Part shown: positions 5,988-10,238 of the stretch, in pieces
Numbering within the stretch: the first letter of the stretch is position 1
How the letters are laid out: every line of letters starts with the position of its first letter
Assembly: GCA_039188945.1 (NCBI GenBank)
Contig: JBCCYW010000006.1
Coordinates: forward strand, 1 to 47,945
DNA length: 47,945 nt
Origin: Patescibacteria group bacterium
Lineage (GTDB): Bacteria; Patescibacteriota; Minisyncoccia; Phycocordibacterales; UBA918
Reading direction: 5' to 3'
Notes under the pieces: model-generated
Databases searched by the model: none
What the model was told of the DNA's origin: nothing
Seen by the model: the letters and a program-made list of their open reading frames with translations, nothing else
Made by a program: the position numbers and the translations under genes

Positions 5988-8900
5988 ATGAGCTTGTCTG
6001 CTGACTTCATTCACCTCCACGTCCACTCGATGTACTCCCTTCTGAACGCTGTCCCAACTACCAAAGAGCTGGTAAAAGCTGCCAAAGCTGATGGTCAGGA
6101 CGCCCTGGCAATCACCGACGCTGGCGCCCTCTATGGTGCTATCGATTTCTACCAAGCGTGTATGAGTGAGGATATTAAACCGATTATTGGTCTCGACGCT
6201 TTTTTGGCTCCCCGCACTCGCTTTGATAAAGAACACCCCACCGACAAGCCGCGTAGTCGCCTGGTGCTTCTCGCTAAAACCTTTAAGGGCTACCAAAACC
6301 TGATTGAGCTGGTTACCCGCAGTAACATCGACGGCTTCTATCACAAACCACGATTGGACGGAGAAATTATTGAGAAACTAAAAGATGATTTGATTTGTAT
6401 CATCCCGTCTTTTGCCGGTGAGGTGGCCCAAGCACTCAAAGACTCCTTGCCCGAACGAGCCGCCGAACGACTTGATTGGTACAAGGGTGTATTTGGCGAT
6501 GATTGCTACCTGGAAATTTCACATCATCCAGAAATCTTTGGTCACAATGAGAACCAAGAAAAGATTAAAGCCTTAGCCAAAGAGACCAACACTCCGCTCG
6601 TCGCCGCTCACGATGTCTACTACATCAATCCCGAAGACCGCCTCGCCCGTGAGACGATGGTCAAAATCGGCACTGGTGGTGTGGTTGATACTGCGGCCGA
6701 TCATGACGGCGCTGAAGACTTTTCCTTCAAAACCCAAGCACAAATGAAAGAGTGGTTTTCAGATGTGCCTGAAGCAATAGCGAATACAGTAAAGATTGCC
6801 GAGCAATGCAATGTCGAGATCACCCTCGGTATGGATGCCTGGGTGTTCCCTGACTACATTATTGAATCTGGTAAAGAACCAGACGATGAGCTGCAAGTGA
6901 CTGCATATGAAGGGGTCACCTGGCGTGGTTTGTCGCTTGAGGATGAAGAAGTAAAAAAGCGCCTTGATTACGAACTCGATGTCATCAAGATGAAAGGCTA
7001 TGCCAAATATTTCTTGGTGGTAGGAGATTTGCTGCGCGAAGCTCGTGAGCGCGGTATTCTAACTACCATTCGAGGTTCGGTGGCTGGCTCACTCACCACC
7101 TATGTACTCGGAATTACCAATGTAAACCCGCTCGAGTACCGTCTCCCCTTCGAACGTTTCTTAAACCCAGAACGTCCGTCTGCACCCGACATCGACATGG
7201 ACTTTGCTGATAATCGCCGTGACGAAATTATTTCTTATGCGCGTGAAAAGTACGGTCATGACAAAGTCGCGCAGATTGGTACGTTTGGAACTATGATGGC
7301 CCGAGCGGCCGTGCGCGATGTGGCGCGTGCCTTGGGACACAGCTACTCGACTGGTGATCGGATTGCCAAGCTGATTCCTCTTGGTGCCCAAGGGTTTCCG
7401 ATGACCATTGACCGCGCGATGAATGAAGAGCCCGACCTAGCAACTCTCTATAAAAAAGACGCTGAGAGCCGGGAAGTAATTGACCTGGCGAAGCAAATCG
7501 AAGGGCGAGTGCGACACTTGGGTGTACATGCCGCCGGAGTGGTGATCTCGCCAGTGCCACTTAATCAATACGTACCAGTCCAGATCGACTCCAAATCAGG
7601 TAAGCAGGTAACCCAGTACGAAATGCACAGCGTCGGTGAAGATGGTACCGGCTTGCTGAAGTTTGATTTCTTGGGCATTAAGAACCTAGCGATTTTGGCA
7701 GACGCGGTGAAGCGCGTGAAAAAAATTCATAACGTCGATATTGATATTGAAAACATCCCCCTTGATGATGAGAAGACCTTTGCCATGCTGGCGCGCGGTG
7801 AAACCATGGGACTCTTCCAGCTTAACGGTTCTGGTATGACGGCGTTTTTAAAGCAACTCCAGCCAAGCTCCATTCACGACATTAACGCCATGGTAGCCCT
7901 CTATCGTCCTGGACCGATGGAATCAATCCCACAGTATATTGAACGTAAGCACAACCCAGCGCTCATTACCTTTCTTGATGAACGCATGGAGACTATTCTC
8001 GATCGTTCCTACGGTATCATTACCTATCAGGATGATGTGATGATGATCTCAATCGAGCTCGCTGGGTACTCGTGGCTAGAGGCAGATAAACTCCGTAAAG
8101 CGATGGGTAAGAAGATCCCGGAAGTGATGGCGGCAGAGAAAGATAAACTGATGGAAGGTCTTCAGGCCAAAGGGATGAGTGAGCAAAAATGTGAGCAGCT
8201 GTGGAAGCTGATTGAGCCGTTTGCAGCTTACGGGTTCAACAAAGCCCACGCTGCCTCGTATGGCCGCGTCGCCTACCAAACTGCCTACATGAAGGCTAAT
8301 TACCCGGTGGAATATATGTCGGCTGTTCTGACTGCTGATTCGGGTGATACGGAAAAAATTTCTGAGATTATTCATGAATGTGAACGGATGGAGATTGAGG
8401 TATTGCCACCAGATATTAATGAATCATATTCTGACTTCAGTGTTGTCCCACTGCAAAATCAAAACAGCGCCACCCGAGGTAGTCAGAACACCGCTAGACG
8501 AGGCGACGACGAGCAAGCGACTGAGTCGTATCGAGCATACGGTGAAGGAGAGGTGAAGGAGTCAACAAAGTCTAGTGGTGAATCTGGCTGGCGAGGCCGC
8601 ATACGTTTTGGGCTTACCACAATTAAAAACTTTGGTGCGGGAATTGCCGAGACCATCATTGAAGAGCGAAAAGCCAGCGGTGCGTATGAATCGATGCAAG
8701 ACTTCCTGTCTCGGGTGCATGATAAAAATCTCAATAAGAAATCACTCGAGGCGCTGGTGATGACTGGCGCGTTCGACATTTTTGAAGAGCGCGGCATGCT
8801 TTATGCCAATATCGATAATATGCTGGCGTACAACCGTGAACATGTGGCCGGCAAAGAGTCGAATCAAGATTCGCTCTTTGCCGGCCTGGGCGACTCCTCC

Positions 8901-9362
8901 GTCACCGCCCTCACTCTTGAATCCGCACCCGAAGCTACTAAGGAACAAAAGCTCACCTGGGAGAAAGACTTACTTGGTGTCTATGTTTCTGGCCATCCCC
9001 TGGAGCAATTTAAAGACGAAGTCGCCAAGCGCCCAACCATTAGCGCCATCAAAGCTGATACTCGTAACGGCATTCCAGTAGTCACTGTTGGTATGGTGGA
9101 AACCGTGCGTGAGCTTTTAACTAAAAAAGGTGACCGAATGGCGTTTGTGCAACTCGCAGATCAAAGCGACTCGATTGAAATGGTCGCTTTTCCGAACACC
9201 TACGCAGATCAAAAAGAGCTCCTGCAGCCAGGGCAATGTATTGCCGTCAAGGGTCGATTATCAATTCGTAATGATGAACCAACGATTGCAATTGAGCGAG
9301 TAAAATCTCTCAACGTACAAGAAAATACTCATGAAGAAGAGATGGTTCTAAGTAGTACGTAA
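5988..9362 (+). CDS. dnaE: DNA polymerase III alpha subunit
   Basis: HLHVHS PHP domain, RGSVAGS, FERFLNPER, PDIDMDF, YGFNKAHAASY, C-terminal OB fold. Confidence 0.98.
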   Translation: MSLSADFIHLHVHSMYSLLNAVPTTKELVKAAKADGQDALAITDAGALYGAIDFYQACMSEDIKPIIGLDAFLAPRTRFDKEHPTDKPRSRLVLLAKTFKGYQNLIELVTRSNIDGFYHKPRLDGEIIEKLKDDLICIIPSFAGEVAQALKDSLPERAAERLDWYKGVFGDDCYLEISHHPEIFGHNENQEKIKALAKETNTPLVAAHDVYYINPEDRLARETMVKIGTGGVVDTAADHDGAEDFSFKTQAQMKEWFSDVPEAIANTVKIAEQCNVEITLGMDAWVFPDYIIESGKEPDDELQVTAYEGVTWRGLSLEDEEVKKRLDYELDVIKMKGYAKYFLVVGDLLREARERGILTTIRGSVAGSLTTYVLGITNVNPLEYRLPFERFLNPERPSAPDIDMDFADNRRDEIISYAREKYGHDKVAQIGTFGTMMARAAVRDVARALGHSYSTGDRIAKLIPLGAQGFPMTIDRAMNEEPDLATLYKKDAESREVIDLAKQIEGRVRHLGVHAAGVVISPVPLNQYVPVQIDSKSGKQVTQYEMHSVGEDGTGLLKFDFLGIKNLAILADAVKRVKKIHNVDIDIENIPLDDEKTFAMLARGETMGLFQLNGSGMTAFLKQLQPSSIHDINAMVALYRPGPMESIPQYIERKHNPALITFLDERMETILDRSYGIITYQDDVMMISIELAGYSWLEADKLRKAMGKKIPEVMAAEKDKLMEGLQAKGMSEQKCEQLWKLIEPFAAYGFNKAHAASYGRVAYQTAYMKANYPVEYMSAVLTADSGDTEKISEIIHECERMEIEVLPPDINESYSDFSVVPLQNQNSATRGSQNTARRGDDEQATESYRAYGEGEVKESTKSSGESGWRGRIRFGLTTIKNFGAGIAETIIEERKASGAYESMQDFLSRVHDKNLNKKSLEALVMTGAFDIFEERGMLYANIDNMLAYNREHVAGKESNQDSLFAGLGDSSVTALTLESAPEATKEQKLTWEKDLLGVYVSGHPLEQFKDEVAKRPTISAIKADTRNGIPVVTVGMVETVRELLTKKGDRMAFVQLADQSDSIEMVAFPNTYADQKELLQPGQCIAVKGRLSIRNDEPTIAIERVKSLNVQENTHEEEMVLSST
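8448..8597 (+). repeat. in-frame palindromic insertion within dnaE (RPE-like)
   Basis: About 50 codons between DFSVV and RIRFGL. Stem TAGTCAGA-CACCGCTAGAC / GTCTAGTGGTG-TCTGGCTG with apical CGTAT-cgagc-ATACG. Confidence 0.7.
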
Positions 9363-9782: not shown

Positions 9783-9783
9783 T

Positions 9784-9811
9784 TTGACATCATAGAATTA
9801 ATTAGTAGGAT
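9784..9811 (+). promoter_or_regulatory. putative sigma70 promoter for the thrS leader
   Basis: TTGACA-16 nt-TAGGAT. Confidence 0.5.
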
Positions 9812-9821
9812 TACAGAAACA

Positions 9822-9983
9822 GGGATTGTGGCGCTTACCAACCGCCAGAACATTCGGGAGAACCTCCCCTAACCTGTCACAATGAAGTGCAGTTTGGCAT
9901 ACCAAACTGAAGCTCGGTGGAACCGCGACAAGATCGTCCGAGTAGTTACGCAACATTTTGTGTACCTACTCGGACGTTTTTTT
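9822..9983 (+). promoter_or_regulatory. T-box riboswitch (Thr) with transcription terminator
   Basis: Stem III CAGTTTGG/CCAAACTG; antiterminator CTCGG-TGGAACC-GCGA..TCGT-CCGAG; overlapping terminator CGTCCGAGTAG/CTACTCGGACG + T7; ACC codons in the 5' stem; lies upstream of thrS. Confidence 0.85.
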
Positions 9984-10010
9984 ATTTACCAGTTAACAAC
10001 ACCCTGTCGC

Positions 10011-10140
10011 TTACTACAAACCTCCTCTAGACACGCGTCCTCGCCTCCAGCGGTCTCGGCGCTCTGCTCACTCGATTTTCACCCAATTGGGTGATCAAGC
10101 AAAATCGAATTGCGCAAGGTCTAGAAAAGGTTTGTAGTAA
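10011..10140. repeat. palindromic element in the thrS leader
   Basis: TTACTACAAACCT..TCTAGAC / GTCTAGA..AGGTTTGTAGTAA with inner TCGATTTT/AAAATCGA and CACCCAATTGGGTG. Confidence 0.75.
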
Positions 10141-10150
10141 CCGATTACCC

Positions 10151-10238
10151 TGTCGGCAACTTACTAGCTTGGCGAAGCATCCGCAACGACAATACTCGGA
10201 GCGAGGACCAGCTGAGAGAAGTTAGTAGGTTGCCGACA
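10151..10238 (+). repeat. second palindromic element in the thrS leader
   Basis: 20-bp stem TGTCGGCAACTTACTAGCTT/AAGTTAGTAGGTTGCCGACA with two G-U pairs. Confidence 0.75.

Follow-up and report, generated by a model that had tools for sequence, protein, structure and literature searches.

RPE-1 elements are about 150 bp long and palindromic, and they are described both from intergenic positions and in frame within core genes (PMC10969869, PMC1779305). ERIC (IRU) repeats are about 127 bp long have TA at both ends, and are often found at gene 3′ ends (PMC3184786, PMC10969869). Among shorter repeats, GTAG REPs are described as often supplying a TAG stop (PMC3733652). Compensatory changes are reported for bcr1 of the Bacillus cereus group (PMC3184786); bcr1 and CIR of Caulobacter are mobile repeats of 110–155 bp.

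We analysed an insert in the replicative polymerase gene of a Patescibacteria (CPR) genome (GCA_039188945.1, contig JBCCYW010000006.1), within a stretch of 47,945 nucleotides that we call the window. The insert is very probably a copy of a dispersed hairpin repeat, here called a rod, that lies in frame in dnaE, and it is likely a CPR member of a miniature mobile-element superfamily that would include ERIC and RPE-1. The origin and movement of ERIC and RPE have been open for decades, and a fold-based model would tie both to a large family that BLAST does not see and that occurs in the majority of genomes of a CPR genus and, among Pseudomonadota, in 51 of the 151 sampled. In scattered lineages the repeat adds a 46-residue loop to the replicative polymerase. 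The family also supplies material for tests: bursts of young, identical copies whose ends are exact, alleles both filled and empty, and in-place swaps between genomes that are 96% identical.

The rods resemble RPE-1 in size, palindromy and occupation of both intergenic and in-frame sites, and a few bridging loci match models of both, on the RPE-1 side below the cut-off. In contrast to RPE-1, the CPR peptide gives no match to TIGR01045, the protein profile of RPE-1, and there is an extra pair in the apex; arms and peptide vary by copy, and only 4 of 99 copies lie inside long open reading frames. With ERIC they share length and siting at gene 3′ ends, and two E. coli copies match the rod model weakly but in register at basal loop and apex; however, these two E. 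coli copies have the sense orientation relative to their operons whereas CPR copies are mostly antisense, and the CPR arms have no fixed terminal repeat. TA at both ends, as in ERIC, is present in 11 of 14 young copies of a proteobacterium (G408), while in CPR there is only the indirect sign of a preference for TAA and TAG. Like REP, BIME and REPIN sequences, the rods are strand-specific mismatched hairpins dispersed near gene ends, but they are three to six times longer than these 20–40 bp hairpins and lack their GTAG or CGTC foot. The bcr1 repeat differs in having two arms and direct repeats of 5 bp. The conserved terminal inverted repeats of a classical MITE are absent in CPR, where the arms vary, and present in G408.

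The in-frame insert in dnaE and its counterparts in congeners

Profile searches matched PHP, pol III alpha, finger, HHH_6 and OB domains in the host open reading frame, identifying it as DnaE. Table 1 lists the insert and its parts. The site between DFSVV and IRFGL holds 51 residues here, compared to 5 (PGxxT) or 9 in most congeners. The earlier note, made from the sequence alone, had counted about 50 codons in place of a short turn; the translation of 8448–8597 is indeed the 50 residues that it quoted, and comparison with relatives sets the count at 51. Its inverted repeat at 8480–8590 is as described, with the three G-U pairs in two outer stems, and its CGTAT/ATACG apical hairpin lies at 8527–8541. 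It was also right to set an intein aside: the insert has neither a Cys/Ser start nor a His-Asn end, and falls short of the >130 residues of an intein.

Table 1. Positions in the window of dnaE, its insert and the parts of the insert.
Feature	Positions	Strand	Remarks
dnaE, DNA polymerase III alpha subunit (host gene)	5988..9362	+	1124 aa; domain matches
Insert	8448..8600	+	51 codons (821–871) where a beta-turn of five residues in the HhH region would stand; in-frame gain of 46 codons; predicted disordered loop
5′ leader of insert	8451..8479	+	A/C-rich; pairing weak or absent
Rod-shaped hairpin (repeat proper)	8480..8590	+	model R2 match at 78 bits
Basal loop motif, 5′ half	8499..8505	+	conserved (C-RA-G-GC-G)
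Conserved apex	8522..8546	+	tandem GA/GA loop, G-U pair, CGTAY-loop-RTACG stem
Basal loop motif, 3′ half	8563..8570	+	C-AA-C-NNA-G

In an AlphaFold2 model of residues 731–966 (49 sequences), the insert had pLDDT below 50 and was flanked by two beta strands. We predict that it is translated into a floppy surface loop, in line with the surface position that the earlier note had suggested checking by a structure model; as with RPE, rods are inserted in frame in conserved genes at surface positions, a placement that is predicted for dnaE. The dnaE rod lies in the sense orientation, the rarer one in the family, and no TA flanks are visible at this old copy. Leaders resembling that of the insert also occur in other dnaE copies and in one clean intergenic insertion.

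Taken alone, this sequence folds into the rod weakly above chance (z −1.37; 23 of 200 shuffles were equally good), and the fold of the insert by itself gave z −1.88 against dinucleotide shuffles (9/200) and z −1.06 against synonymous recoding (26/200). Comparison with relatives is more informative: at the identical dnaE codon, 7 of the 127 other genomes of the genus have a loop that is 46–50 codons longer. All eight copies keep an open frame, with lengths in multiples of three and no stops, despite divergent residues and arms, and they fold into one common rod with 94.3% of cells paired and 12 of 22 pairs changed on both sides. None of 500 shuffles reached their covariation score. Orthologue inserts of the same length therefore keep the fold, whereas the reading of the earlier note would have been refuted by similar-length loops that lack DNA palindromy. 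The insert peptides have a common E-x-Y-x-x-Y-x-E motif because the underlying bases are invariant; one codon, for example, is NCG in all eight copies and is read as S, A, P or T. Rod cores are 55–83% identical, compared to 19–44% for fourfold sites in the flanks.

The nearest relative of each dnaE copy is another dnaE copy (identity 0.69–0.83, against 0.57–0.66 to any of 177 others). The carriers are scattered over a quick DnaE tree of 52 rows from which the insert was removed and in which the G023 row is unusable because of an intein; forcing seven carriers together was rejected on 22 rows that leave out G023 (AU p 6e-17). Given that the copies are mutually closest and the carriers scattered, one or two origins of the filled allele are most likely, followed by gain or loss through allele exchange; the tree fits gain and loss alike.

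Other insertions also occur in this gene. In G023, dnaE (L004, minus strand) is interrupted at YGFNK|SHAAS, upstream of the rod insert, by a full intein that is about 430 residues long and has endonuclease-like blocks; the gene thus holds both an intein and a rod at different sites. In G014 (L003, 1804–1956, minus strand) the rod site carries a 31-residue acidic loop that keeps the PL and GR ends and has no rod; it is possibly a decayed rod copy. G042, from another family (L005), has an unrelated 40-residue loop at the insert site.

A dispersed family of rods, its placement and its turnover

The earlier note had proposed BLASTN and tBLASTN searches and made its reading depend on copies elsewhere. 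Such searches with the insert detected no second copy in its own 903-kb genome, as BLASTN misses a family that covariance models find. Model R1, built from the eight dnaE copies, matched three times in this genome and at least 738 times in 102 of the 128 genomes of the genus when 30 candidates per genome were scored; full searches gave 54 matches in G099, 36 in G024 and 20 in G118. A second model, R2, was built from 92 copies, all from CPR. In its alignment, which was fitted to the model, 93.5% is paired and there are 484 compensated cells compared to 145 after shuffling. With R2 we found eight matches in the insert's own genome at E up to 1 (six at E <1e-6), 63 in the whole of G007 and 0–6 in five low-copy genomes, so that copy number among congeners runs from 0 to 63. 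Across the phylum, 15 of 151 genomes gave R2 matches as well. The earlier note had envisaged a palindromic repeat compatible with coding in a CPR genome; such a repeat, dispersed and of the size of RPE, is therefore present, and the insert is very probably one copy of this family, which would have no coding capacity of its own.

Rods have a median length of 128 nt (78 of 99 copies measured) and are RPE-like in size, dispersal and multiplicity. They have two fixed, purine-rich motifs: a C-RA-G-GC-G / C-AA-C loop at the base and, at the apex, a GA/GA loop over a CGTAY / RTACG stem. Except for an A/T tract, the CPR arms vary from each copy to the next, yet they pair. The fold belongs to one strand, as the outer stems of 50 of 91 copies contain 116 G-T against 16 A-C oppositions. 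The model strand folds better in 89 of 91 copies as RNA and in 88 of 91 as DNA; because the advantage is similar, RNA and single-stranded DNA are indistinguishable here. Among 39 G007 copies compared, the highest pairwise identity was 84%, with no near-identical pairs. A full-text literature search, which covered main texts, found no description of the family. A resemblance between the apex and domain 5 of group II introns was considered and dropped, as it had no Rfam support. We also observed head-to-tail rod pairs with a period of 126–129 nt and back-to-back pairs between convergent genes (G024:C45 9466–9701, G024:C11 16226–16459, G099:C8 65794–66028).

Placement was scored on 99 copies from G007, 260 kb of G099 and the insert's own genome, with open reading frames called by length. 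In 72 of the 99 the 3′ end of the rod lies at the stop codon of a gene on the opposite strand. The mirror placement occurs once, a same-strand start is adjoined in seven cases, and four copies lie inside open reading frames of at least 300 residues. The abutted stops are TAA, TAG and TGA in 42, 28 and 2 cases, compared to 638, 292 and 122 for all genes, and YTAR is modestly raised at these sites (0.55 vs 0.40). Among 43 pattern matches in named Patescibacteria genomes, the counts were 17, 1 and 4. Neighbours are core genes around the chromosome (rpsL, rpsG, rplN, rplJ, secY, ftsA, atpD, thrS), dispersed rather than in the cassette arrays of accessory genes beside an integrase that characterise integron attC sites. 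Replication-strand polarity was considered and rejected: the contig-wide bias is real, but orientation follows the abutting gene and not the replichore, as judged from a table of which 90 of 91 rows were covered.

Coding rods also occur outside dnaE, in an N-terminal extension of an ABC-2 permease with the same reading frame as in dnaE (L192 of G118, L081, L085), and further rods are located within or at mutM, gltX and two long open reading frames of housekeeping type (L356; L393; G007:C2 7227 and 221827). T-box-like matches under the Rfam cut-off were seen upstream of thrS, downstream of dnaE (L035:670–829, L033:346–591, L036:2524–2694 and, by position, 9783–10229 of the window); in several genomes a rod lies between the T-box-like leader and the thrS start.

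Related genomes show that rods are gained, lost and replaced in place. G099 and G098 are about 96% identical, and of ten G099 sites located in the examined part of G098, five hold nearly identical copies, four a different, fully paired family member and one no rod. Outside dnaE, G118 has 19 copies. At ten of these sites G007 has a model-detected copy with an identity of 0.17–0.92, and four of those ten are 0.88–0.92 identical although fourfold sites are saturated (21/64). Five other G118 sites are empty in G007, with both arms missing. The earlier note had called the repeat selfish, which these data bear out in part: its mobility is evident from the gains, losses and swaps, but resident copies are also conserved far above saturated synonymous sites. 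The idea that arms are copied from the target was discarded on two grounds, the missing arms of the five empty alleles and pairing past the stop codon that is barely above swapped controls (mean 3.1 vs 2.5 pairs, 54 copies).

Relatives in other phyla and a probable kinship with ERIC and RPE-1

A pattern for the apex found at least 121 stretches in GTDB genomes, of which 80 were examined. Copies from Rokubacteria and Acidoferrum score 63–67 bits with R2. Matches in Burkholderiales and myxobacteria represent a longer-stemmed variant, mostly below the R2 threshold, which also adjoins opposite-strand stops, in five Pfam-named cases.

We tested a presumed likeness of the apex to those of RPE-1 and ERIC. 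TIGR01045 matched neither the insert's own genome nor 30 element translations. Across 401 Pseudomonadota genomes it gave a single match, at 22 bits and under its cut-off, and this match sits on a rod with the same basal loop (fold z −4.4; R2 29.6 bits, E 3.5e-5). A pattern generalised from this locus found at least 122 metagenome stretches; 79 of 80 such loci, all picked on that apex type, were searched with R2, which gave 32 matches. Four of nine stop-free translations of such loci match TIGR01045, the best at 29.7 bits against a cut-off of 30, although these matches are partly built into the pattern. The bridging loci L452 and L531 match both R2 and TIGR01045, the latter below cut-off. R2 found nothing on 50 kb of plasmid pRF; the comparison with RPE-1 covers the profile and this plasmid.

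For ERIC, we used 13 kb of E. coli K-12 picked as likely to bear such repeats. The two best R2 matches there are weak in score (18.8 and 15.5 bits; E 0.0045 and 0.036 for 13 kb) and are in register with the rods at basal loop and apex. Both are intergenic repeats that contain the ERIC2 primer site, with three and one mismatches; the literature ties this primer sequence to the ERIC name.

A broader and less specific model, R3, made from 22 sequences, matches the 51 Pseudomonadota genomes referred to above. In G408, R2 finds 21 copies, and the 14 examined are nearly identical. Thirteen of them are preceded by YTA, twelve are followed by TA, and eleven have TA on both sides; two of the exceptions form a single tandem junction. 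Six of the 14 are at stops in sense and one in antisense, the reverse of the CPR bias, which indicates that the antisense bias is lineage-specific.

As judged from sequence comparison, ERIC, RPE-1 and the CPR rods are probably relatives within one mobile-element superfamily. The earlier note had proposed an analogy with RPE; the evidence goes beyond that, towards kinship with both RPE-1 and ERIC, through a link that is weak in score. More tentatively, all three may belong to a single ancient superfamily that spans phyla and is defined by its one-strand fold and not by terminal sequence. Fold-recognising machinery that targets stop codons would move its members or swap them in place, and could pass a filled essential-gene allele from lineage to lineage as a homing element does, though with no nuclease encoded. 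A likeness among CIR, ERIC and RPE may already be on record in the original description of CIR.

Possible routes of movement and maintenance

We propose that a TA-duplicating transposase, acting in trans, would place new copies at TA (YTAR) targets. TA flanks on young copies, together with the preference for TAA and TAG, point to insertion at TA targets, as stated for ERIC-type repeats (PMC3184786), and with such targeting TAA and TAG stop codons would be harmless landing sites. TA target duplication is linked to IS630-type transposases, and we name an enzyme of this type as a possible agent, with some doubt. Against it, the searches gave no mobiliser, profile searches found IS630-type DDE_3 in only 4 of 128 genus genomes, the CPR arms vary too much to be recognised in the way of usual terminal repeats, and the strong CPR antisense bias is not explained by TA targeting. 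Because DDE_3 is rare and the arms have no fixed sequence, present turnover is more likely recombinational or due to a fold-reading enzyme. Within the genus, where such a transposase is rare, copies would mostly turn over as family members recombine with one another and dnaE alleles do likewise, which would account for the scattered carriers. Selection would act on the open frame rather than on the peptide, and also on the nucleic-acid fold, most likely through recognition of the looped single strand by a protein.

It is less probable that the agent which moves the rods is a single-strand HUH transposase (Y1, RAYT-like) that recognises structure, as proposed for REPs and REPINs. The one-strand fold with fixed mismatches would suit such an enzyme, as TnpA(REP) is described as needing a mismatched one-strand fold on its own substrate (PMC3333891). 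Genomes with Y1_Tnp also have more copies (median 5 vs 1, p 6e-5, with kin that are not independent), and there is one clean insertion at a C|T junction. However, IS200/IS605-type enzymes are described as making no target duplication (PMC3333891), whereas young copies carry TA on both sides. A Y1 match is absent from 5 of 27 high-copy genomes, from the insert's own genome and from two genomes that hold copies with identical apices. No rod flanks a RAYT gene at the two G007 genes or at six Y1 genes in three proteobacteria; the G007 RAYT-like Y1 genes (C1 300533–301414, C2 243986–244456) have their own short, perfect GC-rich hairpins, a separate REP-like family. We also scanned 81 of 88 G007 proteins that are common with the examined two thirds or so of G099 and weak or missing in the genome studied here; those of mobile type numbered three, two of them Y1 proteins and the third a tyrosine recombinase encoded near the terminus.

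To a similarly low degree, we consider that the rods could be domesticated host elements, serving as a DNA or antisense-RNA signal at gene ends, with mobility secondary and the dnaE copy a tolerated relic. The conservation of the four orthologous copies above synonymous sites would also fit a host function, low-copy genomes retain rods at rpsL, rpsG, secY, rplN and rplJ, and the geometry at stop codons is fixed. A host signal is harder to reconcile with the range of copy number among congeners, with sites that are gained, lost and swapped, with a fold kept in the opposite orientation inside dnaE, and with bursts of identical copies elsewhere.

Both remaining readings concern the dnaE copy. A long hairpin within an essential gene might suggest a mini-intron or bypass element, removed from RNA or skipped by the ribosome; this is very improbable, since all eight copies stay stop-free and in multiples of three, most family members are intergenic, and Rfam (introns, sRNAs, leaders) gave no match on the element. 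That the insert is an ordinary lineage-specific protein loop, palindromic by chance, might seem to follow from the weak lone z-score and the shared peptide motif, but the motif is a by-product of invariant bases, the carriers are not monophyletic, and hundreds of non-coding homologues with covariation refute it.

Other candidate mobilisers and vectors were rejected. Reverse transcriptase, present in 40 of 128 genomes, shows no association with the rods (p 0.52) and is absent from G007 and G099. Phages and plasmids as vectors were dropped after near-empty searches: the strict dnaE-type pattern occurred in 0 viral contigs and the family apex in one, from which the rod is absent, and the plasmid search gave one Ralstonia megaplasmid match for the first query, none for the second and three short, weak matches for the third. 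Finally, G007:C1 (280–420 kb) shows a switch in gene orientation at about 274 kb, next to a gene for a tyrosine recombinase, but its GC skew changes sign only about 130 kb later, an offset that suggests an inversion.
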